From positions 10,136 through 74,135 of the IMG/VR virus record IMGVR_UViG_3300026116_000003: DNA of 64,000 nucleotides; one strand, written 5' to 3'. The translations under genes and the position numbers were made by a program. Position 1 is the first letter of the stretch; each line of letters starts with the position of its first letter. Positions 2,040 through 48,622 of the stretch are shown here, piece by piece. This DNA is from a virus. The notes below the pieces were generated by a model. The model saw nothing but the letters and a program-made list of their open reading frames with translations. It was not told where the DNA came from and did not search any database.

Positions 2040-2074
2040 ACTGTTTTTGTTTGTTTTTTGTTTGCCCTGCGAAA

Positions 2075-2656
2075 TTACTTAGCTGCCGGGATGCGGACGA
2101 ATTGAGCCGGCGTGAACCGAACGGCTTGCGAGCGCAAAGAATCGTTGAAGATACCGAGCGCAAGTTCCATCTTCTCTTGATTCGCTAGGGCTCGATTGTA
2201 GGGCAAGCGAGTCCAGCCGACTGTCCCGCTCGCGGTATGCTTGACGAAATAGCGAGTTGTCCAGCCGACGTCTTTGAATTCGACCTCGATTGCATCGCCT
2301 ACTTTCAAGTCAAACAGGCCGTTCTCGCTGGCGATATTCTGCCGCGCTTGCTTGCGGGCAAACTCGCTTGAGCGACGCTTTTCCTTCAAGTCCATTGCTT
2401 CGACTTGCGCCGCGTGGACCGTTGCGCTAGCGACGTTCCCCAGCACTGTCAACATGCGGAAAGGAACGGTCCAGAGTCCCTTCGATTCCCCTTCTGGCAT
2501 TACTTCAGCGACTTGATGCTGGATGGAGGGGAGCCCGAACTTGGCGAATTTGCGCCCGCGTTCAATCGTCTTGAGCCGAACCACGACTCCAGTAACTTGA
2601 CCGCGACGCCCGTTAAACCGCACTCTTGCACCGACTTTGATTTCGTTTTTTGTCAT
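2075..2656 (-). CDS. Hypothetical protein (SH3-like N-terminus)
   Basis: ORF starts 6 nt after repeat/promoter copy 1; IKVGARVRF and LKVGDAIEV beta-barrel-like starts. Confidence 0.8.
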   Translation of the reverse strand: MTKNEIKVGARVRFNGRRGQVTGVVVRLKTIERGRKFAKFGLPSIQHQVAEVMPEGESKGLWTVPFRMLTVLGNVASATVHAAQVEAMDLKEKRRSSEFARKQARQNIASENGLFDLKVGDAIEVEFKDVGWTTRYFVKHTASGTVGWTRLPYNRALANQEKMELALGIFNDSLRSQAVRFTPAQFVRIPAAK

Positions 2657-2662
2657 ACTAAG

Positions 2663-2690
2663 TTATCGACGCCCTGTGGAAATACTTTAG
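2663..2690 (-). promoter_or_regulatory. Cassette repeat copy 1; sigma28-like promoter
   Basis: CTAAA GTATTTCCACAGGGC GTCGATAA, then 6 nt, then ATG(2656); the TAA is the stop of the upstream gene. Confidence 0.75.
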
Positions 2691-3028
2691 CTCTTTGTTC
2701 CGATAAAAGTTACCGGAGTCGTAAAGTGCGCTAGGGAGAGCGGATAGCGCTCTTTTCCCAAGTGCAAAAGGACTTGCTTTGCGTGGTCGAGCGCATGGGC
2801 TTGAATCTTCGGCCAGTTGCGGTCGCTGACGAACCAGCGCTTGTTTTCTTTGTCAGCGAGCGCAAAGAAGTGGTCTGGAATCAAGTTGCGCCGCGCGTCG
2901 TCTTTGCTATAGTCGCTCAACTTAGCCGGAGTCCGTCCGCTAGCTAATATACATTCGCAGCCCTTGAGCCACGTATAAACCATCCACTCGCCCGCTTCCC
3001 GATTCAGTTGTCTTATTGTTCGTTTCAT
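2687..3028 (-). CDS. Hypothetical protein (true start MKRTIRQ at 3028)
   Basis: ATG 7 nt downstream of repeat copy 2; the longer ORF call merely reads through the repeat. Confidence 0.75.
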   Translation of the reverse strand: MKRTIRQLNREAGEWMVYTWLKGCECILASGRTPAKLSDYSKDDARRNLIPDHFFALADKENKRWFVSDRNWPKIQAHALDHAKQVLLHLGKERYPLSLAHFTTPVTFIGTKS

Positions 3029-3035
3029 ACCAGTA

Positions 3036-3063
3036 TTATCGTCAGCCCTTAGGGATACTTTAG
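3036..3063 (-). promoter_or_regulatory. Cassette repeat copy 2; sigma28-like promoter
   Basis: CTAAA GTATCCCTAAGGGCT GACGATAA, then 7 nt, then ATG(3028). Confidence 0.75.
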
Positions 3064-3242
3064 TCCAATTGAAACATATCTTTGATTGCCTCCAGGATAT
3101 CGCAATCCCGTATCGGCGGCAGGTCGCCGGCGATGTAATGCTCGAAAGCGCCCTTGCGATACCAATTGTCAAACTTCTGGCTTTTAAGCGTATCCAGTAT
3201 CTTTTGAGCCACTTTGTCTTGATTCGATTTGTTTTTATTCAT
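3060..3242 (-). CDS. Hypothetical protein (start MNKNKSNQ at 3242)
   Basis: ATG 7 nt after repeat copy 3; stop TAA lies inside repeat copy 2. Confidence 0.7.
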   Translation of the reverse strand: MNKNKSNQDKVAQKILDTLKSQKFDNWYRKGAFEHYIAGDLPPIRDCDILEAIKDMFQLD

Positions 3243-3249
3243 ACCAGTA

Positions 3250-3277
3250 TTATCGTCAGCCCTTAGGGATACTTTAG
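3250..3277 (-). promoter_or_regulatory. Cassette repeat copy 3; sigma28-like promoter
   Basis: Identical to copy 2, including the TACTGGT-ATG junction. Confidence 0.75.
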
Positions 3278-3666
3278 CTTTTCTTTTTGCACTCCGGCCC
3301 GATACCGGATTCGATTGATTCCGGAACCGTGAGCTTGCGACCGCAGCGGCAACATTTGCCGGCGTGCTGGATTTCAACTTTCCCGGCGAGCTCGTTCAAG
3401 TGAGACCAGATATACGCGAAGGCTACCGCGCTAGGAGCGCTTGGAGCAATCGAAGAGCGAAGTCCATGGCGGTAATTCTCTCCGTTGAAAATCGTCCCGA
3501 GGAACGTATAGCTCGATTCGTTGTCGGGGCCCGTAAGGACTTTGACGAAGTGGGGCGACTCCGGCTTGGGCTGACGAATCTTGTAAGTAAAGCGAGTCCC
3601 GGTCTTGAGCGACGTAGCGGTAAACGTAGCGTTCCCCGCCAGCGCGAATTCTTTAATATTTATCAT
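3274..3666 (-). CDS. DUF6011 zinc-ribbon protein
   Basis: C-terminal CCRCGRKLTVPESIESGIGPEC signature. Confidence 0.85.
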   Translation of the reverse strand: MINIKEFALAGNATFTATSLKTGTRFTYKIRQPKPESPHFVKVLTGPDNESSYTFLGTIFNGENYRHGLRSSIAPSAPSAVAFAYIWSHLNELAGKVEIQHAGKCCRCGRKLTVPESIESGIGPECKKKS

Positions 3667-3672
3667 ACAAGT

Positions 3673-3700
3673 ATATCGTCAGCCCTTAGGGATACTTTAG
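3673..3700 (-). promoter_or_regulatory. Cassette repeat copy 4; sigma28-like promoter
   Basis: CTAAA GTATCCCTAAGGGCT GACGATAT, then 6 nt, then ATG(3666). Confidence 0.75.
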
Positions 3701-4458
3701 CTGACTAACTTCATTTCAGAAGGCTTGGTCCCCGGTGCGAATCGGACTTCACTTGCGAAGCTGGCTTTTAGCGCTTTCATCGCTTCAGCTTGCTTGACGC
3801 GAAGAGCCACGATTTTCTCCCATTGCCCGACTGTGAACGTCTCGCCCTTGTAGGTGAGCTTGCCGTTCTCTTCGACGCGAAACCCCTCTGGCGTCGAGTA
3901 TTCCGACAACCAGCTCTGCTGAGTAAGTTGCTTGACGAATTCCTTGCTAATAGGGGCGGCGATGAACGTCCGATAGCGAGCTTCTGTTGCCGCTTTGATT
4001 TGCTCGACCGAGCGCTCGTGTTGAGCGACGCCGACGATTTCCCGAATCTTCTCTAGCGCTTTGGCTTTCTGCTTTGCGTCGAGCCCGAGCTCCCGGCCGT
4101 TGCCGATTTTCAGCCACTTAGTATCGCCGTAATCGCCGATAACGAGCTTCCAGCCAGTGCAATGCCCACTGGACCACTTGCTTGAGCCCGTATACATATT
4201 CTCAATTCGAACGCGAACACCGAGCGCCCTAGTCCCGTCCGTAGCCGGGTCGAGTTGCCGCAAGACCGCGAGCTCGGCTACATTTTGCTCAATTTGCGCT
4301 TGAGCGCGGGAAGCCAGTTCTTGCTCGTGCTTTACGATACGCTCGGAGGGTTCGATACCGTTCATCATTCCAGCTTCAATCGCGTCTTTGTTGATATCGT
4401 TGAATTCGGTACAGAACTGCGTGGACTTTTCGACTTTGATATTTTGATTCGTTGTCAT
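3697..4458 (-). CDS. Hypothetical protein
   Basis: 253-aa ORF with A-rich leader; stop inside repeat copy 4. Confidence 0.8.
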   Translation of the reverse strand: MTTNQNIKVEKSTQFCTEFNDINKDAIEAGMMNGIEPSERIVKHEQELASRAQAQIEQNVAELAVLRQLDPATDGTRALGVRVRIENMYTGSSKWSSGHCTGWKLVIGDYGDTKWLKIGNGRELGLDAKQKAKALEKIREIVGVAQHERSVEQIKAATEARYRTFIAAPISKEFVKQLTQQSWLSEYSTPEGFRVEENGKLTYKGETFTVGQWEKIVALRVKQAEAMKALKASFASEVRFAPGTKPSEMKLVS

Positions 4459-4492
4459 ATTTTGATTTTGTTTTTTTGCCCTTGTAAGAGAG

Positions 4493-4520
4493 TTATCGTC
4501 AGAGTAGGGAAATACTTTAG
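4493..4520 (-). promoter_or_regulatory. Cassette repeat copy 5 (leadered variant)
   Basis: CTAAA GTATTTCCCTACTCT GACGATAA; 34 nt of A-rich sequence to ATG(4458). Confidence 0.7.
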
Positions 4521-4521
4521 C

Positions 4522-4719
4522 TCAAACTTTAGAAACTCGAACGAACGCCAGCCCGTAAGAGCTAGAGTCTTGAGCGATATCGTTGTGCTTCGCCCAAGCT
4601 CTCAAAGCTTCCAGCGTGAATAATGAACCCGCGTATTGCTTCGACGTTGCTTCAACCGTTAGCTCAGTCGTCTCGTATCCGACCGCCGTTACCGTTACTT
4701 TGAATTTGTTCGTTTTCAT
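4522..4719 (-). CDS. Small hypothetical protein under the sigma54-type module
   Basis: ATG 11 nt downstream of TTGCT; stop TGA abuts repeat copy 5 (TGA-GC-TAAAG). Confidence 0.7.
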   Translation of the reverse strand: MKTNKFKVTVTAVGYETTELTVEATSKQYAGSLFTLEALRAWAKHNDIAQDSSSYGLAFVRVSKV

Positions 4720-4846
4720 ACTCCCCTAATAGCAAGCTCGATACCACTACTGTATTATCTCTAACACGTTGAGTTTAAGCCAAACCTTAAATCGACTCTT
4801 TCCCTAGTGTCCCAAATCGAGATAGACACTGTCTCAAATTTGGACT
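4717..4846 (-). promoter_or_regulatory. Sigma54 (RpoN)-type promoter module, copy 1
   Basis: TGGTAT-CGAGC-TTGCT (GG-N10-GC) at 4746-4731; IHF-like ACTCAA-CGTG-TTA at 4774-4762; two TGTC-N9-GACA-like sites at 4808-4824 and 4830-4846. Confidence 0.75.
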
Positions 4847-4851
4847 GGAGC

Positions 4852-4948
4852 TTCTTTCGCGTAGCGTCTCGCTTCGGAAAGACGTCCTAATCCGTCAGGA
4901 TTGCACGCCAGGACCGTTTGGATTTGCTTTTGAGTGTCAATATAGCGG
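4852..4948 (+). repeat. Dispersed repeat family, copy A
   Basis: GTCCTAATCCGTCAGGATTGCACGCCAGGACC...TTGCTTTTGAGTGTCAATATAGCGG. Confidence 0.8.
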
Positions 4949-4965
4949 CCTGCTAGGGTAACGTC

Positions 4966-5466
4966 CTATAACTTAAAGCTCAAAGCGTAGCGAGTCGCTA
5001 CTTCGTTCGGCTCGTAGAAGTGGCCCTCGGCTGCGGCTTGAGATACGTCTTGCCAGAGGAAGTCCGGCGGCTTAGGGGCGAGCCATTCCATCCCGAGCGT
5101 CGAGACGAAAGCCGGGAACGTCCCGGTAGAGAAGTCTACTATCTCGTTCGTATCCGGCAACGCAATCCAGACATGCATCTCGGGGATTCCTCCGGACGCC
5201 ATAGCGAGTATTGAGTTGAAGTCCGTCGGGCTCCACTTGAAAGCGAAGTGCGTCCCGCGCACGCCGTCGTCGAGATGCTTGGGGACGATTTCCCATTGCA
5301 TCGTCCCCGCTTGCAGGACGGGGCGATAGAAGCGCGGGTAACGGCTCAAGACTTCCATCCCAATCTTCGCTAAGTAAGCGCAAGCGCGGTGCGGTTCGAT
5401 ATCCGCGTGGCGCTCTTTGAAGAGCCGCTGGACCAGCTCAAAGATTCGTTGACGAGCTTCGTTCAT
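4966..5466 (-). CDS. Hypothetical protein (possible transglutaminase/papain-like fold)
   Basis: ORF; C...HVWI...IVDFS arrangement suggests a Cys-His-Asp triad; ATGA coupling to the upstream gene. Confidence 0.7.
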   Translation of the reverse strand: MNEARQRIFELVQRLFKERHADIEPHRACAYLAKIGMEVLSRYPRFYRPVLQAGTMQWEIVPKHLDDGVRGTHFAFKWSPTDFNSILAMASGGIPEMHVWIALPDTNEIVDFSTGTFPAFVSTLGMEWLAPKPPDFLWQDVSQAAAEGHFYEPNEVATRYALSFKL

Positions 5467-5930
5467 ATCCCTGCCTTTAGCTTGAGCTTTTCCAGCGCAG
5501 CTCTCGCTTTAACTTTGATTTGCCCTTCCCATTCGGTATCCTGCCGCCCGAGCGTCAGGCCGTGGTATGCGTCGAGCAAGTCCTTCAGCGCCTGCCAATC
5601 TTCGCTCGCTCGCTCGTCTCTCTTGCTTCGTCGCTTGTCGCAATCGCAAGCAACTACGTGCCCGTGTTTGTCGCACCAGTGCGTCGGTCGTTTGGGGTGG
5701 CAATCTAAACTTCCGTCAATCCGATAGTCTTGCGGCAAGTAATCTTCGGTCTCAATCCACTGGCGAATTGCTTTCGCTTCTTCCGCGCTAAAGTAAGCCT
5801 CTATCGGCCCGCGGCGAAAGAGCAGTGCGTCTCTTCGCTCTTTCGTAATCGTGTGCCCGTGGACTAGCAATCGCCCAGCTTCCGTTGCGTTGAGGTCTCG
5901 CACCAGTTTGTCTCTTGTATTGATACTCAT
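5463..5930 (-). CDS. Hypothetical protein
   Basis: ORF translationally coupled in the 4966-6950 operon. Confidence 0.7.
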   Translation of the reverse strand: MSINTRDKLVRDLNATEAGRLLVHGHTITKERRDALLFRRGPIEAYFSAEEAKAIRQWIETEDYLPQDYRIDGSLDCHPKRPTHWCDKHGHVVACDCDKRRSKRDERASEDWQALKDLLDAYHGLTLGRQDTEWEGQIKVKARAALEKLKLKAGI

Positions 5931-5931
5931 A

Positions 5932-6240
5932 TCAGTAATCTCCAGTCGGTTCGTTGCGCCCCATGACTTCGTTGTAATATCCCATCGGGTCGGCTTCTCG
6001 CGTGCAACTATCGCAGTGGTATCCGTGCGCTTTTTGATACGACGAGCGCAAGCGAGATTTGCACGTCGGGCACAATAGCGGATGATTTTCAGGAGGAAGT
6101 CCGTTCGTCTCTTTCTCTACTTTCGGGATTCCAGTGGCGCAAGCTTTGCACTTCCCGGCGTGCTCTCTAGCGTATTTCTTCGACGTAAGAGCACCGCACG
6201 AACACCGGACCGTAAACTGCTTGAATTGAAAGTTGCTCAT
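5932..6240 (-). CDS. Zinc-finger hypothetical protein
   Basis: CSC, CKAC, CPTC and CDSC motifs. Confidence 0.75.
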   Translation of the reverse strand: MSNFQFKQFTVRCSCGALTSKKYAREHAGKCKACATGIPKVEKETNGLPPENHPLLCPTCKSRLRSSYQKAHGYHCDSCTREADPMGYYNEVMGRNEPTGDY

Positions 6241-6950
6241 ATTCCAATCCTCCCATTCGCTTTGCCGCTGCCGACTTGATTGAGGCGAATCTGCTGCCCC
6301 TTAGCTCGCCCGAAAGCGTAAGCCGAGTTGCTGACTTGTTGCGCCCGAGCTTTCGAGCGAATCAATACGGGGAAGTCTTGCGCCACGCGCTTCGATATCA
6401 GAGCGTCTTTATTGACGACAATCAGCGCCCAGCAACTCGCTTCCTTCGGAGTCAGCTTCGCTTCTTCGCGCCGGTTCACTTCGATAATTCCGTCGCAGAG
6501 CCCGCGAAAGACTCCGTTCTTGTTTGCGGCGCAACTGACCATCCCGTTTTTCTCGGCGTGGTAATACGTCGAGGGAAAGACTTTCTCCAGATAGGGGAAG
6601 AGCTCCCGGCAGATGGCGACGTCCGTCGCTTCTCCGATAAAGATAGCCTTCGTGCCACTGATGATAACTTGAACGCCGAAGCACTGGCGCAGCACGCGAT
6701 AAATCCACGTATGGTAGGGCTTTTGAGCGCTCGTCTTTATCTGGATATCGGCGCGGTCGATTTCAATCGACGAGCCAGCAGAACGACCGGCCGCCATATC
6801 AATCGACGCCAGTTCAATCCCGTGCTTCATGGCCAGCTCTTTCGCTTTGCCCATCGCCGCTTCCATCTCGCCTTGCGAAGCGTTGCCGTGAGACAGCGCG
6901 AGGCACTTGCGAATCTTTTCAATCACCGCCGAGTTCATTTGATTTGTCAT
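6237..6950 (-). CDS. DUF2786 domain protein
   Basis: N-terminal IEKIRKCLALSHGNASQGEMEAAMGKAKELAMKHGI; C-terminal AYAFGRAKGQQIRLN. Confidence 0.85.
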   Translation of the reverse strand: MTNQMNSAVIEKIRKCLALSHGNASQGEMEAAMGKAKELAMKHGIELASIDMAAGRSAGSSIEIDRADIQIKTSAQKPYHTWIYRVLRQCFGVQVIISGTKAIFIGEATDVAICRELFPYLEKVFPSTYYHAEKNGMVSCAANKNGVFRGLCDGIIEVNRREEAKLTPKEASCWALIVVNKDALISKRVAQDFPVLIRSKARAQQVSNSAYAFGRAKGQQIRLNQVGSGKANGRIGI

Positions 6951-6983
6951 AACTTGTTTTTTTTGTTTCGCCCTGTGGAAAGT

Positions 6984-7011
6984 ATATCGTCAGCCCTTAG
7001 GGATACTTTAG
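6984..7011 (-). promoter_or_regulatory. Cassette repeat copy 6 (leadered variant)
   Basis: CTAAA GTATCCCTAAGGGCT GACGATAT; 33 nt to ATG(6950). Confidence 0.7.
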
Positions 7012-7012
7012 C

Positions 7013-7309
7013 TCAAATCGAGAAATCAATTACGACGCTCGCAACTGTCGCAACCACAACCGTGAACTTTACCCACCAGTGCGATTGATTCGCTACGCTC
7101 GCTCCGCCGCGGAACGCCGCGTAGTGCTCGCCCTCGTCGACTAACACTGCGCCGGGAACGGCCGCGATTACTTGAGCCGCGTAGCTTTCCGCGCTACCGC
7201 CGTGACGATAGTAGAACCCGTGGCGAGCAGTAAAGACGCCATTCCGCAAGCTTATTGAATCCGCCGATATTAGTTCCTCGATTTGCTTTATTGTCATTTT
7301 GTTTTTCAT
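7013..7309 (-). CDS. Hypothetical protein under the sigma54-type module
   Basis: Same upstream module as 4522-4719; TGA-GC-TAAAG junction to repeat copy 6. Confidence 0.75.
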   Translation of the reverse strand: MKNKMTIKQIEELISADSISLRNGVFTARHGFYYRHGGSAESYAAQVIAAVPGAVLVDEGEHYAAFRGGASVANQSHWWVKFTVVVATVASVVIDFSI

Positions 7310-7436
7310 ACTCCCCTAATAGCAAGCTCGATACCACTACTGTATTATCTCTAAGTGCTTGAGTTTAAGCCAAACCCTAAATTGAAGATTCCCCTAGTGT
7401 CTCGCTCCTAGATAGACAGTGTCCCGTTTCGAGTCA
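7307..7436 (-). promoter_or_regulatory. Sigma54 (RpoN)-type promoter module, copy 2
   Basis: Colinear with 4717-4846 at offset 2590; -24/-12 at 7336-7321; IHF-like ACTCAA-GCAC-TTA; TGTC-N9-GATA/GTCA sites at 7398-7414 and 7420-7436. Confidence 0.75.
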
Positions 7437-7712
7437 AAACCCCCGAGTTTGCCCGAAAGTTCCCCACTTGCTGATAAATTCCAGGTCCAGGAGGACTTGC
7501 TTCGTTATCGGGCTCACCGCAGGTTCTGCCGGAACGCTAGCCAGGGCGCGTGAACGCACGCTCGCTTGACGTTGCTCGACGAGCGCCGGGATTGACGCTA
7601 GGTTGGTCGAGACGTAGAGCAAACAAGCGAGAGCCAGCCAGAACGTCTTGAGACTCGCTACCGCTGGCGTCGGTCCAACCAGCACGTCGAATTCGAAAGC
7701 GTCATTGTTCAT
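7434..7712 (-). CDS. Hypothetical protein with one hydrophobic segment
   Basis: FWLALACLLYVS stretch. Confidence 0.65.
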   Translation of the reverse strand: MNNDAFEFDVLVGPTPAVASLKTFWLALACLLYVSTNLASIPALVEQRQASVRSRALASVPAEPAVSPITKQVLLDLEFISKWGTFGQTRGF

Positions 7713-7730
7713 ACTGGTAAAATCGCTAAA

Positions 7731-7922
7731 TCAATGAGCCGAAGCTACATACCACTTGTTATCTACGCCGAGCACAATTTGAAACTTTCCCTTGTGAGAG
7801 ACGAAAACAGCCGGCGGCATTCCGCAGGGGCGAGGACGAAGCTCTACAATCGCCGCCGTCAAAGGCACGCCATTTTCAATTTCGACTTGCACTAAATCAC
7901 CGACTTTTAAGTTTTTCTTCAT
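7731..7922 (-). CDS. Small hypothetical protein
   Basis: ATG 7 nt after repeat copy 7. Confidence 0.7.
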   Translation of the reverse strand: MKKNLKVGDLVQVEIENGVPLTAAIVELRPRPCGMPPAVFVSHKGKFQIVLGVDNKWYVASAH

Positions 7923-7929
7923 ACTAGAG

Positions 7930-7957
7930 TTATCGTCAGCCCTTAGGGATACTTTAG
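7930..7957 (-). promoter_or_regulatory. Cassette repeat copy 7; sigma28-like promoter
   Basis: CTAAA GTATCCCTAAGGGCT GACGATAA, then 7 nt, then ATG(7922). Confidence 0.75.
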
Positions 7958-7964
7958 CTTTATC

Positions 7965-8354
7965 TCAAAGCTTTGCAGCCGCAAGCACTTCAGCCCGGAG
8001 CTTAGCCGCGCAGGGAGCGCAGTAGCCGTGAGAGACGAAGCTCCCAAGCGCCTTGCTGCGCTCTTTGTTATCGCAAGCGCAACAGAGCCAGAGCATAATC
8101 TCTTTGCCACGACAAGCAGCTTCGCGGACGAGCGCCAGCGCCGTCAAGTCCGTAATCTTTACTAGCTCGCTCGTTGAGCACCGAGTCCAGTCTCCGCCGC
8201 TAACGGTAAATCCGGCCGGAGCGCCCGTATAGTGCAAGCGCGGGCGGATTTCAGTTTTCGTCCCGTCCAAGTCCCAAATATTGTAGCCGACGCCAGGAGC
8301 GGTCGATTCCAGAGACTTTACCGCCGCCGCAAGTTTGATTGTCATATTCTTCAT
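7965..8354 (-). CDS. Hypothetical protein with C-terminal zinc finger
   Basis: CCAC...SHGYCAPC motif; ATG 7 nt after repeat copy 8. Confidence 0.75.
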   Translation of the reverse strand: MKNMTIKLAAAVKSLESTAPGVGYNIWDLDGTKTEIRPRLHYTGAPAGFTVSGGDWTRCSTSELVKITDLTALALVREAACRGKEIMLWLCCACDNKERSKALGSFVSHGYCAPCAAKLRAEVLAAAKL

Positions 8355-8361
8355 ACCCTAG

Positions 8362-8389
8362 TTATCGACGCCCTTAGAGAATACTTTAG
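8362..8389 (-). promoter_or_regulatory. Cassette repeat copy 8; sigma28-like promoter
   Basis: CTAAA GTATTCTCTAAGGGC GTCGATAA, then 7 nt, then ATG(8354). Confidence 0.75.
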
Positions 8390-8544
8390 GGGCGATTGAT
8401 ATATCCACTGGGGTTGCGCTTAGCGTCTTCCAGCAAGAGAGCCAGGAGGAACAAAGTATCAGTCTCGCTTTGCGCCATACCGAGCGACTCCGCGCGCTTC
8501 CGGTCAGCGATTAGCGAGTCAATTATTTCATCAAAAGTTTTCAT
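8386..8544 (-). CDS. 52-aa hypothetical protein (MKTFDEIIDSLIADRK...INRP), below the ORF-track cutoff
   Basis: Manual translation; ATGA overlap with the upstream stop; TAA inside repeat copy 8. Confidence 0.65.
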   Translation of the reverse strand: MKTFDEIIDSLIADRKRAESLGMAQSETDTLFLLALLLEDAKRNPSGYINRP

Positions 8545-8723
8545 ATCATTCCGTTCGCGTCGAGCTCGTCATAGAGCGCTTTCGTCTTCGTTACCATATT
8601 ATTGTCTCGCTTGAGCCGGCGGAGCTGAACCAAGACGTCGATTACTTCCTCGTCAGTTATCGGCTCGCCCAAATACTTTGCCATAATTTGCTTCGCCGTG
8701 AGTTTCTTTGTTTTGCTTTTCAT
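8541..8723 (-). CDS. Small hypothetical protein (start MKSKTKK)
   Basis: ATGA overlap with 8720-8965. Confidence 0.65.
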   Translation of the reverse strand: MKSKTKKLTAKQIMAKYLGEPITDEEVIDVLVQLRRLKRDNNMVTKTKALYDELDANGMI

Positions 8724-8965
8724 AAAATTGTAACGCACGGAGCGAAGTGAAAATCCCGCATTGCTTGTTCGATAGTCATCCCTTCAGCTTCGCCCGTAAC
8801 AAAGTCTCCATACATCAATTCGGCTGCGTCTGCCCGAGTCTCGAAGTCTCCAGTATATTGCTCTTCGTGCTTTAGTTTTTTGCAGTCCTTGCAATCAGCA
8901 GCGTGGACAATAAAGACGCCTTTGGATTGGTCCCGCAAATTAGGTCCGAAAATTGTCAGTTTCAT
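8720..8965 (-). CDS. Hypothetical protein
   Basis: ATGA-coupled ORF; VHAADCKDC...APC. Confidence 0.7.
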   Translation of the reverse strand: MKLTIFGPNLRDQSKGVFIVHAADCKDCKKLKHEEQYTGDFETRADAAELMYGDFVTGEAEGMTIEQAMRDFHFAPCVTIL

Positions 8966-9258
8966 AAATCTTGCAAGTAGGGGTTGGGTTTGTAGGTCGG
9001 TTCGGGCTTGACGTTGAGCTTTTTGGGCATCATGGCGAGCGCTCGTTCCATCGGAGTTTGCTTTACGTCGAAGTGAATCAAGACCGGTTGGTAAACGAAG
9101 ACTCCACGACGACCGGCGTAAGCGCGCACGTCTTCGATACTTTCGAAGCGAGTTGCCTTTTCGTGATTGCGTATCGACTTGAATCCAGTCGGCGGGACGT
9201 CTACTAAATACACGTTTTTCTTCTCAAACCAAATTACCCATTTGCTATCAATTTTCAT
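8962..9258 (-). CDS. Hypothetical protein
   Basis: ATG 6 nt after repeat copy 9. Confidence 0.7.
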   Translation of the reverse strand: MKIDSKWVIWFEKKNVYLVDVPPTGFKSIRNHEKATRFESIEDVRAYAGRRGVFVYQPVLIHFDVKQTPMERALAMMPKKLNVKPEPTYKPNPYLQDL

Positions 9259-9264
9259 ACTGGT

Positions 9265-9292
9265 ATATCGACGCCCTGTGGAAATACTTTAG
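9265..9292 (-). promoter_or_regulatory. Cassette repeat copy 9; sigma28-like promoter
   Basis: CTAAA GTATTTCCACAGGGC GTCGATAT, then 6 nt, then ATG(9258). Confidence 0.75.
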
Positions 9293-9293
9293 C

Positions 9294-9575
9294 TCAAGCT
9301 TTGAAATACTTTGCGATATCGGGAAAGTCTCGCTTGAGCGACGCTACAGCGAGCCGAGCGATTTCATTATCAACTTTGCGAATCTCCGCGTTGACTTGCT
9401 TGCAAGTTGCGTCAGCCATAAGCTTTATCGCTATGGGCGTGCAACCGTCGTATTTCCCGAAAGATGCTTGCTTGCTCAAAGCGTCTCGGATTTGGACAGT
9501 ATTCCAGCCGGCGTTTAGAAGCTCGCCGATTGCTTTTTGCAGTCTCGCTACCACCGTTTCGTTTATCTCGTTCAT
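9294..9575 (-). CDS. Hypothetical protein
   Basis: ORF between repeat copies 10 and 9. Confidence 0.7.
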   Translation of the reverse strand: MNEINETVVARLQKAIGELLNAGWNTVQIRDALSKQASFGKYDGCTPIAIKLMADATCKQVNAEIRKVDNEIARLAVASLKRDFPDIAKYFKA

Positions 9576-9582
9576 ACTAGAG

Positions 9583-9605
9583 TTCAGCCCTTAGGGATAC
9601 TTTAG
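9583..9605 (-). promoter_or_regulatory. Cassette repeat copy 10, with a 5-bp deletion in the -10 box
   Basis: CTAAAGTATCCCTAAGGGCTG-AACTCTAGTATG versus copy 7 ...GGGCTGACGATAACTCTAGTATG. Confidence 0.7.
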
Positions 9606-9606
9606 C

Positions 9607-9789
9607 TCAATCTTGAAGAGCGATTGCAGCCGCGCGGGCAAGCTCGACGCCCTTGCTAATCCGGTCCCGTTCGATTAAGAGCAACGGCTTGAGCATCGTC
9701 GATACTCGCGGCGACTTGATTAAGCGGTCGAGACGGTCCCAATCGGCTCGGATAGAGCGAAACTCTGCATGGGCTTGTAAATAAGTCAT
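9607..9789 (-). CDS. Small hypothetical protein
   Basis: ORF ending in TGA-GC-TAAAG at repeat copy 10. Confidence 0.65.
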   Translation of the reverse strand: MTYLQAHAEFRSIRADWDRLDRLIKSPRVSTMLKPLLLIERDRISKGVELARAAAIALQD

Positions 9790-9795
9790 AAAAGC

Positions 9796-9978
9796 TTAGT
9801 TTTCAAAACATTGGACCCACTTAACGACTTGAGACGTAGAGCTACGGATTGTGCTCAAGACGCGCCTGGCGCGGCTCGGCTCGATATCCATCGGGAGCAA
9901 TCCTTCAAGCCGCTCGATTGCTTGTTTCATTTGCGTCAGCTCTTCCTGGATTCTATCGTATTCGATTGATTTATTCAT
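9796..9978 (-). CDS. Small hypothetical protein (start MNKSIEY)
   Basis: ATG 7 nt after repeat copy 11. Confidence 0.65.
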   Translation of the reverse strand: MNKSIEYDRIQEELTQMKQAIERLEGLLPMDIEPSRARRVLSTIRSSTSQVVKWVQCFEN

Positions 9979-9985
9979 ACTCAAG

Positions 9986-10013
9986 TTATCGACGCCCTTA
10001 GGGAATACTTTAG
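9986..10013 (-). promoter_or_regulatory. Cassette repeat copy 11; sigma28-like promoter
   Basis: CTAAA GTATTCCCTAAGGGC GTCGATAA, then 7 nt, then ATG(9978). Confidence 0.75.
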
Positions 10014-10252
10014 CTCAAAGTTGCAAAGACTTCAGAGATAACATAAGCCCAGCCCCGTCGATTGAACTGCTGACGAATCCCGTTCCCTACCATTACATTA
10101 TACGGTTCGAGATTTGCGCCGGCATCTTTGACAAGCTTTAAGATAATCCAGCGTCCGTTGTCGCTCGATATTCGATAGAATTGGCATTCCACGATTCTGT
10201 GGTCGATTTTGAATTGCCCGACTTGCGATTGACTTGTTGCTATATATTTCAT
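10010..10252 (-). CDS. Hypothetical protein
   Basis: Exactly bounded by repeat copies 12 and 11. Confidence 0.7.
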   Translation of the reverse strand: MKYIATSQSQVGQFKIDHRIVECQFYRISSDNGRWIILKLVKDAGANLEPYNVMVGNGIRQQFNRRGWAYVISEVFATLS

Positions 10253-10259
10253 ACTAGAG

Positions 10260-10287
10260 TTATCGACGCCCTTAGGGAATACTTTAG
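10260..10287 (-). promoter_or_regulatory. Cassette repeat copy 12; sigma28-like promoter
   Basis: CTAAA GTATTCCCTAAGGGC GTCGATAA, then 7 nt, then ATG(10252). Confidence 0.75.
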
Positions 10288-10294
10288 CCCTTAT

Positions 10295-12905: not shown

Positions 12906-13475
12906 TTAATGAGCCCACACTTCCCAAAACCGCAATTCAATCTCTCGTTGCGCTCGCTCGATGCGTCGCTTGTCCAGGCCTTTGCTCTGGAGATATTCTT
13001 TGACTCTCGCCAGCAGTTGCTTCGGCGTCATCTTGCTCCCCAAGTCCAGACTTTCTCCGCGACGCGGGCCAGCAGCAATCCGCCCCACTTCCAGAATCTC
13101 CGCCGGGGTCTCCAGCAGGAGACTGATTATCTCTTGAGCGTCTTCCGACAAGCCACCAATCATATCCATAATCTCGCTACGTTGCTCCGGCGCGAATCCA
13201 GTCAACTCGTCGTTCATCTCCGTGCAGATTAGCGGGTCTCTCGTCCGCTTCGTTATCCAGCTGCGCAAGCTCGTCCAGACCTTAAAGTAGCACCAGGAAG
13301 AGAACTTAGAACCGCGGCGGCTATCGTAAGTTTGACAAGCGAGCATGAAGGCCAGATAAGCCTCGCTCCGCGACTCTTCGAAAGTTACTGGACAAGCTTG
13401 CGCGACTTTCCACGCCAGACTGCAGAGCATTTTTTCCACTTTGGGAAATTCAATTTGCGGGTCGATTTTTGTCAT
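12906..13475 (-). CDS. Phage RNA polymerase sigma70-family-like protein (region 2 plus degenerate region 4)
   Basis: LAWKV...EESRSEAYLAFMLACQTYDSRRGSKFSSWCY resembles region 2.2-2.3 (FDPxRGxKFSTYA); LSEDAQEIISLL resembles region 4.1. Confidence 0.7.
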   Translation of the reverse strand: MTKIDPQIEFPKVEKMLCSLAWKVAQACPVTFEESRSEAYLAFMLACQTYDSRRGSKFSSWCYFKVWTSLRSWITKRTRDPLICTEMNDELTGFAPEQRSEIMDMIGGLSEDAQEIISLLLETPAEILEVGRIAAGPRRGESLDLGSKMTPKQLLARVKEYLQSKGLDKRRIERAQREIELRFWEVWAH

Positions 13476-13483
13476 TTGTCGTT

Positions 13484-13517
13484 GGTTAGAAAGTATACCT
13501 TTCTAACCCGGTGTCAA
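13484..13517 (-). promoter_or_regulatory. Operator-like palindrome overlapping a sigma70-type promoter of the sigma-like gene
   Basis: GGTTAGAAAG-TATAC-CTTTCTAACC (13484-13508); TTGACA (13517-13512)-N16-TACTTT on the minus strand. Confidence 0.6.
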
Positions 13518-38450: not shown

Positions 38451-38525
38451 CACGTCCTAACCGTCAGGATTTGACTTATAGGACGTGTTTATTGCTTTTG
38501 AGTGTCTACGTAGCGGTAGCTAATG
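38451..38525 (+). repeat. Dispersed repeat family, copy B (hairpin-forming)
   Basis: CACGTCCTA...TAGGACGTG 9-bp stem; CCGTCAGGAT; TTGCTTTTGAGTGTC; TAGCGGTAGCTAATG. Confidence 0.8.
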
Positions 38526-42028: not shown

Positions 42029-42256
42029 CTATTCCATTTTCCTCATCTTTTTGATGGCACTACGCGGAATGGTGAGCTGGTCCATATAGCGCCGGCGCTG
42101 GCTAACGCTAGTGGAAATAGTTACCGAATGTTTGCCTTCGTAGACGAGCAATCCCACAGAGAGGATATAGTGACGGCCGTCTCGTTGCGGGCTATCCCAG
42201 CCAGGGCTGGTAAACGAGTCCTCCCACTTAATCTGAACTACTTTAAGCTTTTTCAC
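42029..42256 (-). CDS. Small conserved phage hypothetical protein
   Basis: VQIKWEDS...SVGLLV...TIPRSAIKK pattern. Confidence 0.7.
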   Translation of the reverse strand: MKKLKVVQIKWEDSFTSPGWDSPQRDGRHYILSVGLLVYEGKHSVTISTSVSQRRRYMDQLTIPRSAIKKMRKME

Positions 42257-43058
42257 GCTTCTGTATGTAGTCGAGCAATACTCGACGGTTCGCGTCCATG
42301 TGCGTGCGGTAAGCGTTAGCGACGGAACGAGCGTGCCAGCGGTGCAGCAAGCAGAGCCACCTGTTGCGCTGAAATAATTCCCAAGCTTTGACTCGGCTAA
42401 TCTCGTCCCGGCAGCGCCACGTCACGTTCGTAATATCCAACCGGCCGGATAGCGGACAAGCTCCACGCTGATAGCGCTCCAGCATATAGATTTGCTGGTA
42501 GTCTTCCCAGCCGTAGCCGGCAAAGCGTTCATCACACCCGCCCAAGTCCAGATACTCCTGGCGCCGGCAGATAAAGTTAGTCCCGGCCGGGCGCAAGTAG
42601 GAGTTGGCCGAGTAAAAGCCGGGGTTCTCCATAATCTCCGTATAGTTGCGCTCGGTAAGGTCTTTTGTATCCAGCAGAGCAGAAGCTTTGCGGTTCAAGT
42701 AAAGCATTCCGCCATTGAACCACTCCCGCGGAGCCGCCCAAACGAGAATCGGCAAGAGCTCTTTGAAGTAACGGGGATTGGGAAGCGTGTCTATATCGAG
42801 CTTCATTATCCACTCCGACGTGGTCATCTTCGCTCCTTCGTTGTGGTAATAGCCGATGGAACGTCCCTCTTTGAAATGGATTCCGATAACGTCAACAGTC
42901 CACAAATCCGTAAAGTCTAGCTCTTTGCGCGGAGCTACTTCACCAATAAAGAAAATGAGGTGGTTTACTTCGGGGTGAGCGGCAGCCCGGATAGCTTTGA
43001 GCCATACTTTCAGCGCGTCCGGCCGGTTCCAGACGGGAGTAATAGTTGTGAGGGTCAC
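42243..43058 (-). CDS. Glycosyltransferase (GT-A fold; GT2/GT7 C-terminal motif)
   Basis: TITPVWNR, LDID, GGCDERFAGYGWED, LHRWH. Confidence 0.85.
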   Translation of the reverse strand: MTLTTITPVWNRPDALKVWLKAIRAAAHPEVNHLIFFIGEVAPRKELDFTDLWTVDVIGIHFKEGRSIGYYHNEGAKMTTSEWIMKLDIDTLPNPRYFKELLPILVWAAPREWFNGGMLYLNRKASALLDTKDLTERNYTEIMENPGFYSANSYLRPAGTNFICRRQEYLDLGGCDERFAGYGWEDYQQIYMLERYQRGACPLSGRLDITNVTWRCRDEISRVKAWELFQRNRWLCLLHRWHARSVANAYRTHMDANRRVLLDYIQKREKA

Positions 43059-43699
43059 GCCCGGTGGTGGTGCTTGGAATCGGGCCGTTTCATACGAGAA
43101 GGAGACTCCGCTACTTTTTGAATCTCTAGCTTGTGCTTAAGGCAATCGGGGCAATCTACTTCGTCCCAATACGCTGACCACAAGTGGCCAGACGGCCAGA
43201 CTTTTGGAACGCCTTGGATTCCGCAAGGAGCTCGTCCGGCTCGCAAGTAATGAACGACAAGAACAGGGTTCCTAGCGTGCGCGGGTTGCGTTGCGTCTAC
43301 TCTTGCCGCGTCCCACTCTGTTTCTTTTACTAAAGCACCAACGTCAGCCAGTGCTTTGTCAGCCCGCTCCGCTGCCTTCTTGTCGGAGTATTTCAAATCG
43401 TTGTAGCGTTTGGTGAGCTTGAGGATGTTAGCGTCCAGCGTCTCTTGCCGCGAGATATCCATCGCTTGCCGGAGCCCTTCCATATAGAATTCCAAATCGC
43501 CGAGCTCTTCGATAACGTTAGCGCGGTCGAGCGGCTTGCGGTAGATAACCGGGCGCTTAATCGCGTCGAACAGTTCTCCGGCTTCGCTGCAAATACAAGA
43601 CGACATGTGCCAAACATTGCAGTCCCAAGCGGTCAGCTCGTTCAAGATATCTTCTCCAGGCTTGGTCAGCTTCGCTACTAATTCGGGGTGAGTAATCAT
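43055..43699 (-). CDS. MazG-like nucleotide pyrophosphohydrolase
   Basis: SEAGELFD, EELGDLEFY, NILKLTKRY. Confidence 0.88.
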   Translation of the reverse strand: MITHPELVAKLTKPGEDILNELTAWDCNVWHMSSCICSEAGELFDAIKRPVIYRKPLDRANVIEELGDLEFYMEGLRQAMDISRQETLDANILKLTKRYNDLKYSDKKAAERADKALADVGALVKETEWDAARVDATQPAHARNPVLVVHYLRAGRAPCGIQGVPKVWPSGHLWSAYWDEVDCPDCLKHKLEIQKVAESPSRMKRPDSKHHHRA

Positions 43700-43953
43700 T
43701 GCGAGTTGTGGTTTTTAGTTATCCGTTTAATTTCCCTGTCAATATAGTATCTGGCCTTCTGCAAGTCCTGCAGCGCGTCCCCTTTCTCTCCAGCCCTCCA
43801 GATATATTTCATCGCATTGCCTAAGCAAAAGTTCATATGCTCGACCACTTCAATGCATTCAATCCCCGAAGGAGAGACGTTATAGTGCTTGGCGCGATTG
43901 ATTACGTCGAATCCGAGAGGAACTGGGTCCACAACTTTTAATTTGGTTTTCAT
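43696..43953 (-). CDS. DUF3310 protein
   Basis: KHYN..GIECIE, NFCLGNAMKYIWRAGEKG..QDLQKARYYI. Confidence 0.9.
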   Translation of the reverse strand: MKTKLKVVDPVPLGFDVINRAKHYNVSPSGIECIEVVEHMNFCLGNAMKYIWRAGEKGDALQDLQKARYYIDREIKRITKNHNSQ

Positions 43954-44156
43954 AGTTCAGCTTCGCGCAGCGCCGCGAGCAGCGCGGTTGATTTTGCCGC
44001 TCCTTCTCCTTGCGGAAGAGACTTGACATAATCGAACCACCGGACTGACACCAGCCGCGGCCGGAACTGCAAAATAAATTCGTTCAATACGAAGCCGTCC
44101 TTCTCTGGGTCTATCCGGTGAGCCACTGGAATCTTAATCATCTGCCCCTCGGTCAT
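43950..44156 (-). CDS. Hypothetical protein
   Basis: ATGA-coupled ORF. Confidence 0.6.
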   Translation of the reverse strand: MTEGQMIKIPVAHRIDPEKDGFVLNEFILQFRPRLVSVRWFDYVKSLPQGEGAAKSTALLAALREAEL

Positions 44157-44782
44157 ACCCGCAAGTAAAAAGCATCGCCCCAGCCGCTGCCGGTCATCTT
44201 GATTTCCTTCCGACTAAAGCCCTTCTCCCAAAAGAATGCATCGATATCCTTTAGCAACGGACACCCTATGTAGAGCTCTTTCACATTTACTTCAATATAA
44301 GCCGAATCAAATTCCCAAAACAAGTCGCCCATTCCTTTTAGCGCCAGCAGCTCGGCTCCTTGCAAGTCGATGTTGAGCAACCATCCGGGCCCTACTTCCA
44401 GCTTGTTTTGCCGGAGCAAAGTATCAACCCGAATCGTCGCCATCCGAATCGTCTTTACGTAGCGAACCGTAGGGTGCGCTTGCGCGTGCGTCCCTAGCTC
44501 GAAGAACGAAGAGCTTTGCCCATCATTAGAAGCCACATGGAAGTCTACTTGTTGATTGTCTACGTCGCTTAGGCACGCTAATAGCGCAACGGAACCGCGT
44601 ATAGGAGCGATTTTCTGCTTCAGGACGTCAAATACTTGCGGAAGAGCTTCCACCCAGATAACCCGCTCGATTCCTGCAGCTGCATAGGCTGGAGCTTCCT
44701 GTCCCTCATTTGCTCCTAAGTGGAGAACACCGGGCGGGCGGAGCGAATACTTTTTGCACAAATAGTCAAACGGTATCAGCAT
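44153..44782 (-). CDS. FkbM-family methyltransferase
   Basis: LHLGANEG, WVEA, IDLQGAELLALKG, EVN..LY. Confidence 0.88.
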   Translation of the reverse strand: MLIPFDYLCKKYSLRPPGVLHLGANEGQEAPAYAAAGIERVIWVEALPQVFDVLKQKIAPIRGSVALLACLSDVDNQQVDFHVASNDGQSSSFFELGTHAQAHPTVRYVKTIRMATIRVDTLLRQNKLEVGPGWLLNIDLQGAELLALKGMGDLFWEFDSAYIEVNVKELYIGCPLLKDIDAFFWEKGFSRKEIKMTGSGWGDAFYLRV

Positions 44783-45326
44783 AAGAATGAGCGTAGAACC
44801 ACGCGCCGGCGTCCTCCGGCTTGTCTTCCGGCAAAGTGTTTACCTCGAGAAATCTTTCCTTAGCAAAGTCCAGCACTGCTTGATGAACTCCGTAGCTCGG
44901 GTTCAAGTAGTCGTGGAAAGCCATTACTCCTTTCTCAACCAGCTTCGGATACCACGCTCGAATATCGTTCATCACGCCTTCGTAAGAATGGTCAGCGTCG
45001 ATGTAAACGAGCCGCAGGCAGCGAGCTGGAATCCGCATCGCCACTTGCACTGAATCCCCTTTAAGAAAAGTGACCGCTGTCCGTACCGATTTCATTTTCT
45101 GCTTGGCTTGAGCGAAGTTGCTATCGTGCCAGGATTGCGGACAAGACGCATCTCCTTTCTGCGTCGGCACGCAAGCCCAACGGTCGACGCAGTAAAGCGT
45201 GGAGAAAATAATCGGCCAGTCGAGCATCTCCCGGCTAAAGTTTCCCTCTGCTACTCCAATCTCAGCGATACCGCCGGGGACGTTCTTGACTAGCTGCCAC
45301 AAGTCACGTCGATATTGAATACTCAT
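44766..45326 (-). CDS. Class I SAM methyltransferase (Methyltransf_24-like)
   Basis: AEIGVAEG, VYIDADHSYEGV, GVMAFHDY. Confidence 0.88.
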   Translation of the reverse strand: MSIQYRRDLWQLVKNVPGGIAEIGVAEGNFSREMLDWPIIFSTLYCVDRWACVPTQKGDASCPQSWHDSNFAQAKQKMKSVRTAVTFLKGDSVQVAMRIPARCLRLVYIDADHSYEGVMNDIRAWYPKLVEKGVMAFHDYLNPSYGVHQAVLDFAKERFLEVNTLPEDKPEDAGAWFYAHSYADTV

Positions 45327-46267
45327 AAACCAGTCCGGTTGCCAAAAAGGTAATTCAAATAGTCATAGCCATCGCCACCTGAAGTATATTGACCTTCACG
45401 GATAATCTTCAACCCCTTTACTGGAAGCTCCAACTCGTAGAGGAGCAAAGAAAATTGAGTCTCCGGAGCGAAAACATAGTCATTCTTTTGGGCAGTATTG
45501 TAAGTATTGTGCTTCCGGTTCGTAATCAAGCCCATCCGATTAAGATTAGGGAACAAGCGCTCGGCTACTTCCCGCCCAGAGAACCAACAAAAGTCATCAG
45601 CCCATTCCATCTCGTCAAATGAGATATTGCCGCGCACGCTCCCGCAAACAAATAGGGCATTCAAGTCGTCTATGTAGCGCCGGATATCCCAAGACCAGTC
45701 TACCACGAAGTCCGGCCGCGCTCGCATAACGTAAGCATAACGAGCGCCCCGCTGGACTTCGTGCCGCTCCATGGCTTCGTAGCACGTCCGCACACGGTGA
45801 TACTGGTCAACTACGTAGCCAATCCCGGCGTCTTCCGGCAGCACGTCGTTCCCACTACACGGCGGCGGCAGTCTTCGTAATCTATTCTCCGCCTGATAGA
45901 GCTTGATTGCTTCGGCCATCTTCCGCCGGTTAAGCGCTACAGTCAGTTGGTCAGACAAGCTCTGGTCTTCGACGAACAATATCTGCTTGAGCACTTCCGG
46001 CCCGAGCAACTCGGCAATCTCCATTACTTCCGAACTGGTAACCAGACGCTCCTCTCGCACGATAGTCCTGCCTTTCTCGTGCCAGGTTAAGCGGTTGGCT
46101 GAAGAGACAACCAGCGGAGTAGACGGAGCCTTGCGAAGCATATTTTTCCACGACGTCACAATAAAGACGTCCGCTTCACTCGGCCGGGCTAAGTTGTCGC
46201 GCAAAGAGGGGAGCGAATTACGCCAACTCCCCAGCCGGCCGGATAATAAGATAGCCGTCTGGTTCAC
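45323..46267 (-). CDS. Putative glycosyltransferase (SGxxR/RxD-type)
   Basis: AILLSGRL, DVFIVTSW, YAYVMRARPD, PE motifs; cluster context. Confidence 0.6.
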   Translation of the reverse strand: MNQTAILLSGRLGSWRNSLPSLRDNLARPSEADVFIVTSWKNMLRKAPSTPLVVSSANRLTWHEKGRTIVREERLVTSSEVMEIAELLGPEVLKQILFVEDQSLSDQLTVALNRRKMAEAIKLYQAENRLRRLPPPCSGNDVLPEDAGIGYVVDQYHRVRTCYEAMERHEVQRGARYAYVMRARPDFVVDWSWDIRRYIDDLNALFVCGSVRGNISFDEMEWADDFCWFSGREVAERLFPNLNRMGLITNRKHNTYNTAQKNDYVFAPETQFSLLLYELELPVKGLKIIREGQYTSGGDGYDYLNYLFGNRTGL

Positions 46268-46509
46268 GCTCCCCGCTCGGCCATCGCTTTGTCCAGCTGC
46301 GCCACTTTTTCTGGAGTCAGCATGGCAATTACTTTTCGCGCATGCTCCGGCAGTTCCCGAAGGTGTTTGTCGCCGGGCAGTTTTAATACCCGCGATACGT
46401 CGAGCGTCAGCATCGTCATCTCGTTGATTTGGTTTTGCAGCTCGGCTAACTGCCGGCCGGCGTCCGGTTTGAGACTAGGACTAGGGTTTGGACTAGGACT
46501 TGGATTCAT
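46264..46509 (-). CDS. Hypothetical protein (start MNPSPSPNPSPS)
   Basis: ATGA overlap with the upstream GT25 gene. Confidence 0.6.
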   Translation of the reverse strand: MNPSPSPNPSPSLKPDAGRQLAELQNQINEMTMLTLDVSRVLKLPGDKHLRELPEHARKVIAMLTPEKVAQLDKAMAERGA

Positions 46510-48549: not shown

Positions 48550-48622
48550 TATCGATTCTCTGTCCAGATTAAGAAGCCAACAGTGGCTAAGAACACGACC
48601 GCAACTATTGCATCGGCCCAAT

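Follow-up and report, generated by a model that had tools for sequence, protein, structure and literature searches.

What does a short repeat do that recurs, in near-identical copies, directly ahead of the start codons of small genes in an uncultured phage? The window analysed here is the whole stretch of 64,000 nucleotides that corresponds to bases 10136–74135 of the 74,135-bp IMG/VR record IMGVR_UViG_3300026116_000003, a record with 90-bp direct terminal repeats. Its minus strand, the coding strand for nearly all genes of this phage, carries an array of small gene cassettes punctuated by such a repeat (Table 1). An earlier note on this DNA had proposed that the repeats are promoters of an alternative sigma factor from which leaderless mRNAs are transcribed. 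Our own answer, to which we assign a probability of roughly 0.55, is that the repeats would be sigma-28-class (FliA/SigD/WhiG) promoters, which the host RNA polymerase would read with the host's own sigma-28-type factor, that they would give leaderless mRNAs of the cassettes, and that they would double as recombination sites.

A scan of the window for TAAA-N15-GWCGATAW returned 11 matches, all on the minus strand, where dinucleotide shuffles give an expectation of 0.03 (largest count: 1). These 11 intact copies stand exactly where the earlier note had placed them, and each fits its formula TAAA-N15-G(A/T)CGATA(A/T); the twelfth copy on its list is also real, but a 5-nt deletion has removed CGATA from it. 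The truncated copy keeps the downstream sequence of the intact ones, including the ATG, and the orthologous cassette in a sister phage (G001) has an intact box. A 13th copy, intact, lies outside the window, 2.5 kb away (genome 7638–7664), which brings the whole genome to 13 copies, all on the coding strand. Allowing up to three mismatches, no further match resembling the repeat family was found in the window, while the ~45 single exact-motif matches in unrelated IMG/VR contigs are not interpretable, several of them lying in AT-rich DNA with ordinary Shine-Dalgarno (SD) leaders. The intact copies read CTAAAGTAT-N11-G(A/T)CGATA(A/T/G). Across the 26 intact copies of this phage (G000) and G001, both boxes are invariant while the spacer drifts through at least 8 forms (at least 6 among the copies of this phage), and the 6–7 nt ahead of the ATG vary as well. 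The copies are tightly packed against the preceding open reading frame (ORF), whose stop codon is either the TAA within the -35 box (six copies) or the TGA of a conserved TTGAG just 5′ of the box (four copies). The cassette proteins received no functional assignment except for matches to DUF2786/DUF7168 and DUF6011, which makes the host-takeover role that the earlier note gave to this region a guess.

Table 1. Coordinates, in the window, of the promoter-like repeat copies, of the cassette array and of the phage sigma-like gene.
Feature	Position	Strand	Description
Copy 1	10260..10287	-	CTAAAGTAT-N11-GTCGATAA; ATG of 80-aa ORF 7 nt downstream (10252)
Copy 2	9986..10013	-	GTCGATAA; ATG 7 nt downstream (9978); TAA in -35 box is the stop of ORF 10010-10252
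Copy 3, truncated	9583..9605	-	-35 box and spacer intact, CGATA lost; 93-aa ORF starts at 9575
Copy 4	9265..9292	-	GTCGATAT; ATG 6 nt downstream (9258); heads a 4-gene block with ATGA start/stop overlaps
Copy 5	8362..8389	-	GTCGATAA; ATG 7 nt downstream (8354)
Copy 6	7930..7957	-	GACGATAA; ATG 7 nt downstream (7922)
Copy 7	6984..7011	-	GACGATAT; 33-nt A-rich leader; ATG 6950 opens a 4-gene block (DUF2786/DUF7168 protein)
Copy 8	4493..4520	-	Divergent spacer, GACGATAA; 34-nt A-rich leader; ATG 4458, 253-aa ORF
Copy 9	3673..3700	-	GACGATAT; ATG 6 nt downstream (3666), DUF6011 protein
Copy 10	3250..3277	-	GACGATAA; ATG 7 nt downstream (3242)
Copy 11	3036..3063	-	GACGATAA; ATG 7 nt downstream (3028), 113-aa cassette
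Copy 12	2663..2690	-	GTCGATAA; ATG 6 nt downstream (2656)
Cassette array	2075..10252	-	~25 small ORFs, 52-253 aa
Sigma-like protein	12906..13475	-	189 aa, sigma-70 region 2 only

The consensus of sigma-28 promoters is TAAAGTTT-n11-GCCGATAA (PMC2859248). In this phage, the repeat agrees with it at 7/8 positions in each box (14/16) and has the same N11 spacer; a binomial estimate for at least 14/16 consensus positions is ~3e-7 per register. Taken box by box, the -35 octamer is TAAAGTAT in 13/13 genome copies (7/8 positions of TAAAGTTT), the spacing TAAA-N15-GCCGATAA (i.e., N11) is kept in 12/12 intact copies, with one N12 variant in G001, and the -10 octamer G(A/T)CGATA(A/T) matches GCCGATAA, including the core CGA, at 7/8 positions, one copy being without CGATA. 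The sole -10 mismatch affects the extended -10 'GC', whose second base is A or T in place of C, and single changes in this pair are reported to be tolerated, with little effect (PMC12784957). The two-box geometry that the earlier note had recognised is thus supported by the number of matching positions, by the correct spacer and by the conservation of the boxes over a drifting spacer.

As a sigma-70 promoter, the repeat is poor: CTAAAG agrees with TTGACA at only 2/6 positions, most copies (GATAAC, GATATA) are devoid of the -7 T that a primary sigma needs, and a scan of the array region with the sigma-70 consensus found nothing above chance. The first two of these features also bear on the idea that some other sigma factor of the host, either of the extracytoplasmic function (ECF) type or a primary sigma from some little-studied phylum with a consensus other than TTGACA/TATAAT, reads the repeats, their likeness to sigma-28 promoters being partly a coincidence. 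Such a view could draw on the atypical character of the host (no SD use, and many (G/A)AGATAATA boxes 5–8 nt before ATG), on the variants CGATAAT and CGATATA, which partly overlap a GATAAT-like -10 hexamer, and on the fact that some ECF promoters combine a TAAA-like -35 with a CG-containing -10. However, the -10 octamer, the spacer and the -35 octamer all fit sigma-28, and a relative of this phage, discussed below, has canonical GCCGATA(A/T) sites, so that we regard another host sigma as decidedly unlikely. Finally, an archaeal promoter of the TATA/BRE type was considered and rejected in view of the bacterial replication genes, the strong conservation of CGATA at positions -15 to -8 and the presence of sigma-54-like and GATAAT-like boxes elsewhere.

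In nine intact copies, the ATG lies 6 nt (three copies) or 7 nt (six copies) past the -10 octamer, as the earlier note had reported. Transcription of the E. coli aer gene by sigma-28 starts 6 bp past the -10 octamer (PMC2859248), and the 5′ ends of the phage transcripts are therefore expected on the A of the ATG or 1–2 nt before it. The product would be a leaderless mRNA needing no SD site. Consistent with such a design, the promoter-adjacent start codon is ATG in every case, without an SD site. That the layout leaves no room for an SD site, a point stressed by the earlier note, makes a weak argument: SD-like tetramers occur at 13% of the ORFs of this phage vs 11% in the background (58% vs 15% in the distant relative G006), and the exclusion of an SD site by the promoter position is uninformative because the phage uses no SD sites anywhere. 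A more telling feature is that ORF starts in the array fall into three classes only, i.e., beside a promoter box, in overlap or direct contact with the stop codon of the ORF before (as ATGA or TGAtATG), or behind an A-rich leader of the CAGGGC(G)AAACAAAAAA type, as found after the copies ending at 7011 and 4520. Terminators are lacking between cassettes, and the ORFs of a read-through transcript would be reached by stop/start coupling alone, so that each promoter copy would in practice also be the translation-start signal of its cassette.

Beyond transcription, the near-identical copies, 35–40 nt in length, would act as homologous recombination sites and so allow entire cassettes to be acquired, deleted and rearranged. 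The arrays of G000 and G001 are mosaics, in which blocks at 80–96% identity are separated by phage-specific cassettes and end at repeats. The 113-aa cassette (2687–3028) is cleanly missing from G001, with the junction inside CTAAAGTAT, and it is also missing from contigs of two other metagenomes (joint 2681>3055). Further contig joints, observed in runs X3 and/or X10, are 7713>7918, 8551>9002 and 9982>10294, and metagenome assemblies break at the repeats.

Such breakpoints raise the question of whether the repeats are promoters at all, or instead recombination boundaries, operators of a regulator or translation-start signals on read-through transcripts. Parallels exist in the stoperators of cluster A mycobacteriophages and in the start-associated sequences of cluster K mycobacteriophages, and both the constant position of the motif before start codons and the truncated copy at 9605, which still precedes an intact ORF, can be read in the same way. 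Yet, recombination alone leaves unexplained why 8-nt boxes are invariant when the spacer between them drifts, and why they match a promoter consensus; moreover, in the relative G002 the -10 box and its spacing from the ATG persist in the absence of any repeat, and the repeat of this phage has no RNA structure. A purely non-promoter role therefore appears very improbable to us. The more specific candidate of an RNA element was rejected, as the repeat folds no better than shuffles (z 0.5 to 1.4), an Rfam search with it gave no match, and terminator-like sites in the array region are at chance level, with none following the repeats.

Searches with the major capsid protein (MCP) returned >2,000 homologues, which delineate a very large uncultured group. 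Among the 14 records that were compared, the repeat is shared only by G001 (~95% nucleotide identity). G002 (67 kb, estimated to be 90% complete, MCP at 70% identity) is without this repeat, but its coding strand has, in the interval from 27 to 47 kb, canonical GCCGATA(A/T) boxes 6–10 nt ahead of start codons, several of them with TAAAG at N11–12, while spacers and flanks are unrelated among sites. At two further sites of G002, TAAAGTTT-N11-ACCGATGA and TAAAGTTT-N12-GCCGAATA, an ATG follows after 3 and 7 nt, respectively. Scanned with a simple consensus, G002 gave 17 hits on the coding strand vs 3.5 expected for both strands together, and ~9 of its sites are non-repetitive, with an ATG 3–10 nt downstream. 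Because none of these sites derives from another by copying, they testify independently that what is maintained is the boxes and how far they stand from the ATG. The motif search in related phages that the earlier note had called for hence uncovers independent sigma-28-type boxes before start codons; as for relatives that keep the spacer and lose the boxes, which the note had considered adverse to its proposal, what we observe in G000 and G001 is the reverse. No sigma-28-like sites were detected when scanning G003 (a complete genome), G010, G005 and G013, and G003 has no array between its primase-like gene and DnaB.

This distribution matters for the identity of the sigma factor that would read the boxes, for which the earlier note had envisaged either a FliA-type factor of the host or the sigma-like protein of the phage itself. 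In the latter scenario, the sigma-like protein would be made early from a sigma-70-type promoter and would then read the repeats as leaderless promoters, the array being a middle class of genes. The sigma-like gene is indeed located just upstream of the array on the same strand, and gene and array co-occur in G000 and G001. Its product has a sigma-70 region 2 (PF04542 at 23.7–25.4 bits for a cut-off of 24), its own profile hits region 2 of SigA/RpoD (E 5e-6), and it matches phrog_351 (sigma factor). Its family amounts to only ~10 sequences among 5.8 billion. However, it scores only 12.9 and 9.2 bits against the FliA_WhiG profile TIGR02479, whose cut-off is 189.6, and neither a region 3 nor a region 4 domain was detected in it. 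In its structure model (predicted local distance difference test, pLDDT, 76), the helical C-terminal half matches no sigma domain confidently, and Foldseek retrieves sigma factors of several groups, but weakly, all with E >0.04 and with 0 matches at E <= 0.001. Moreover, homologues of the protein exist in G003, where the gene likewise precedes that of the helicase, and in G010, G005 and G013, i.e., in genomes without sigma-28-like sites, whereas G002, 90% complete, shows the opposite combination: sites, but neither a PF04542 hit nor a homologue of the sigma-like protein. With the homologue present without sites (G003, G010) and sites present without the homologue (G002), the phage sigma gene is therefore uncoupled from this class of promoters. 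In addition, 14/16 sigma-28 positions would have had to be reached by convergence in a divergent two-domain sigma. Altogether, the sigma-like protein is not a member of the FliA/WhiG family and is probably not the reader of the array, and we consider the phage-encoded reader rather unlikely; the uncoupling, although seen in few genomes, one of which is incomplete, makes the FliA-type sigma of the host the likelier one. Regarding the proposal of the earlier note, the boxes, the spacing and the ATG position all speak for leaderless transcription by an alternative sigma, as do the G002 sites, and of its two candidates the host factor is favoured by the relatives, while the phage protein is disfavoured. 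As a separate observation, a palindrome with 9–10-bp arms (GTTAGAAAG..CTTTCTAAC) occupies positions 13484–13508, directly upstream of the ATG of the sigma-like gene, and is likely to be a regulator-binding site.

Transcription of the cassettes by the host's sigma-28-type factor thus remains our preferred explanation. The motif with its statistics and geometry, the lack of SD sites, the cassette indels at the repeats and the occurrence of motif and phage sigma gene across relatives are direct observations, while promoter activity, the positions of the 5′ ends and the identity of the reading sigma are inferred. Several considerations nonetheless weigh against it. First, it assumes that the host has a FliA-type sigma and translates leaderless mRNAs. 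Second, FliA is normally held by FlgM in non-motile cells, so that a dependence on FliA would restrict the phage. Third, the G000 and G001 copies are related by descent, and their number is thus not independent evidence, only the G002 sites being so. Finally, G002 being 90% complete, a sigma gene could sit in its missing part, and the distance between the phage sigma-like gene and the array is short (~2.6 kb), in addition to their co-occurrence in both sister phages.

Other sequences related to the repeats, or to the way genes start in this phage, deserve mention. The 13th copy, in the genome region 7523–7664, has no adjoining ATG; the transcript predicted from it has a strong hairpin at its 5′ end (-30 kcal/mol, z -5.7), then a GAGATAATA box, an A-rich leader and a 217-aa ORF, and could represent either a small RNA or an attenuator. 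At 7713–7731 of the window (minus strand), TAGCGATTTTACCAGTATG precedes the 92-aa ORF 7434–7712; its -10 box and the stretch up to the ATG are recognisable and its -35 box is lost, so that it looks like a decayed promoter copy. Three genes share a CA(A/G)GGGC(G)AAACAAAAAA...ATG leader (6951–6983, 4459–4492 and 2040–2074, minus strand), twice behind a sigma-28-type copy and once directly after a stop codon, and this A-rich leader may be an SD-independent translation enhancer. A single (G/A)AGATAATA(C) box lies 5–8 nt before many starts (window positions 1413, 11313, 14760(+) and 15704(+); genome positions 1648 and 6791), and also in the relative G003 (e.g., 37129, 40015 and 53392), a phage without sigma-28-like sites. 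This box is probably a -10-only class of leaderless promoters read by the primary sigma of the host, and its occurrence near the ATG in both phages suggests that a promoter-at-ATG layout is general in the phage group. The array also holds two 121-nt repeats that are 86% alike (4713–4833 and 7303–7423, minus strand; three copies in G001). Each has TGGTAT-N5-TTGCT, a GG-N10-GC core of the sigma-54 type that ends 12 nt before an ATG, with GAGACA/GGGACACT repeats ~60–100 nt upstream and a TTGGCT-18-GATAAT match as well. These modules may constitute a second type of alternative-sigma promoter placed to start at the ATG.

By its gene content, this virus is a tailed phage, the window encoding an HK97-like capsid protein (DUF6260), a tape measure protein and a J-like tail protein, along with an SNF2 helicase and a primase-like gene for replication; past the left edge of the window are found a DnaB-like helicase, a beta-clamp-like protein, a UDG-exonuclease, PolA and a clamp loader. 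Its DNA is present in 22 runs from 21 studies, all from rhizosphere or soil, and the 24 runs listed were all DNA runs, with none recorded as RNA. A nucleotide search of the phage collection with this phage gave 0 matches, and its nearest cultured relatives by portal protein and MCP are distant (25–36% identity; Brevundimonas, haloarchaeal and enterobacterial phages). When the capsid protein was compared with 185,579 species genomes, the sole match, at 54% identity, was JAQUQK010000073.1, an 8.5-kb contig binned in a metagenome-assembled genome of Thermoplasmatota. We judge this to be probably a binning error, because the phage group has a DnaB-like helicase, PolA, a clamp loader and a beta-clamp-like protein of bacterial type. 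No tRNA genes were found in the phage when looked for, and an Atlas search with its proteins returned viral clusters only. Elsewhere in the window, genes for glycosyltransferases (GT2, GT11, GT25) form an island with three methyltransferase-like genes and MazG between the portal and capsid genes (42243–49321), while the ORF at the right end of the genome (63590–64000), rich in acidic residues and lysine, is made of degenerate 40–56-nt repeats. A dispersed repeat of ~40–70 nt with hairpin potential occurs on the plus strand, antisense to genes (42–80, 4910–4948 and 38492–38516); one copy immediately precedes the sigma-54-like module at 4833.

The known early and middle programmes of phages rely on the primary sigma of the host, on an RNA polymerase of the phage or on a phage-encoded sigma. 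A full-text literature search found no paper on sigma-28-type promoter arrays or on a leaderless alternative-sigma programme in a phage, in agreement with the earlier note, whose author knew of no early programme wired in this way. If our reading is correct, a motility sigma of the host would tie phage gene expression to host physiology, a link that no paper we found describes. The 35-nt element would combine a promoter, a translation start and a recombination site in a compact plug-and-play design for accessory genes, and would provide a simple signature for finding such cassettes in metagenomes. It would also give a handle for host prediction, since the host should have a FliA-type sigma, few SD sites and translation of leaderless mRNAs. 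A more general and more tentative proposal, to which we give somewhat less than even odds, is that a widespread group of uncultured soil phages wires accessory cassettes to the flagellar sigmas of the hosts (sigma-28, and possibly sigma-54 via the 121-nt modules), such that cassette expression would report or require the motile state, which would suit a phage adsorbing to swimming cells, with a leaderless 35-nt promoter, ribosome-entry and recombination element as the common part.

How do these repeats compare with known systems? Phage sigma cascades are exemplified by SPO1 gp28 and gp33/34, T4 gp55 and phiEco32 gp36. The present phage resembles them in carrying a sigma-family gene and gene sets that share a non-sigma-70 promoter, but here the comparison of relatives separates the sigma-like gene from the promoter class, and the promoter fits the consensus of a host sigma. 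Leaderless genes are likewise familiar in phages, as in the middle and late genes of the Thermus phages phiYS40 and P23-45. Another leaderless phage transcript is that of lambda cI from pRM (bioRxiv 10.1101/2023.09.02.556006). As would be the case in the array, the promoter sets the mRNA start at the AUG and no SD site is needed; these promoters, however, depend on the primary sigma (in Thermus with phage factors) and do not form arrays of near-identical alternative-sigma copies. A further parallel is offered by the promoter-early stem-loops (PeSLs) of T4-type phages, mobile regulatory cassettes that mediate the shuffling of modules in hyperplastic regions (PMC2839356, PMC4122927). In both cases, a promoter motif flanks small ORFs of unknown function in a variable region, and close relatives differ in that entire ORFs have been inserted, deleted or replaced, the breakpoints lying in the repeated motif. 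In contrast, PeSLs associate a sigma-70 early promoter and a terminator stem-loop with ordinary leaders, whereas the repeats of this phage are of the sigma-28 type, show folding at the level of shuffles and terminator-like sites at chance, and abut the ATG. Finally, the class 3 flagellar promoters (FliA of E. coli, Salmonella and Pseudomonas; SigD of Bacillus; WhiG of Streptomyces; PMC2859248, PMC12784957) share with the repeats 14/16 positions, the N11 spacer and an expected start ~6 nt past the octamer. Unlike them, the phage copies, for which sigma-28 dependence is predicted, have A or T instead of C as the second base of the -10 octamer, would leave no 5′ untranslated region, have no SD site, and stand, near-identical and a dozen in number, before accessory genes rather than flagellar or chemotaxis genes.

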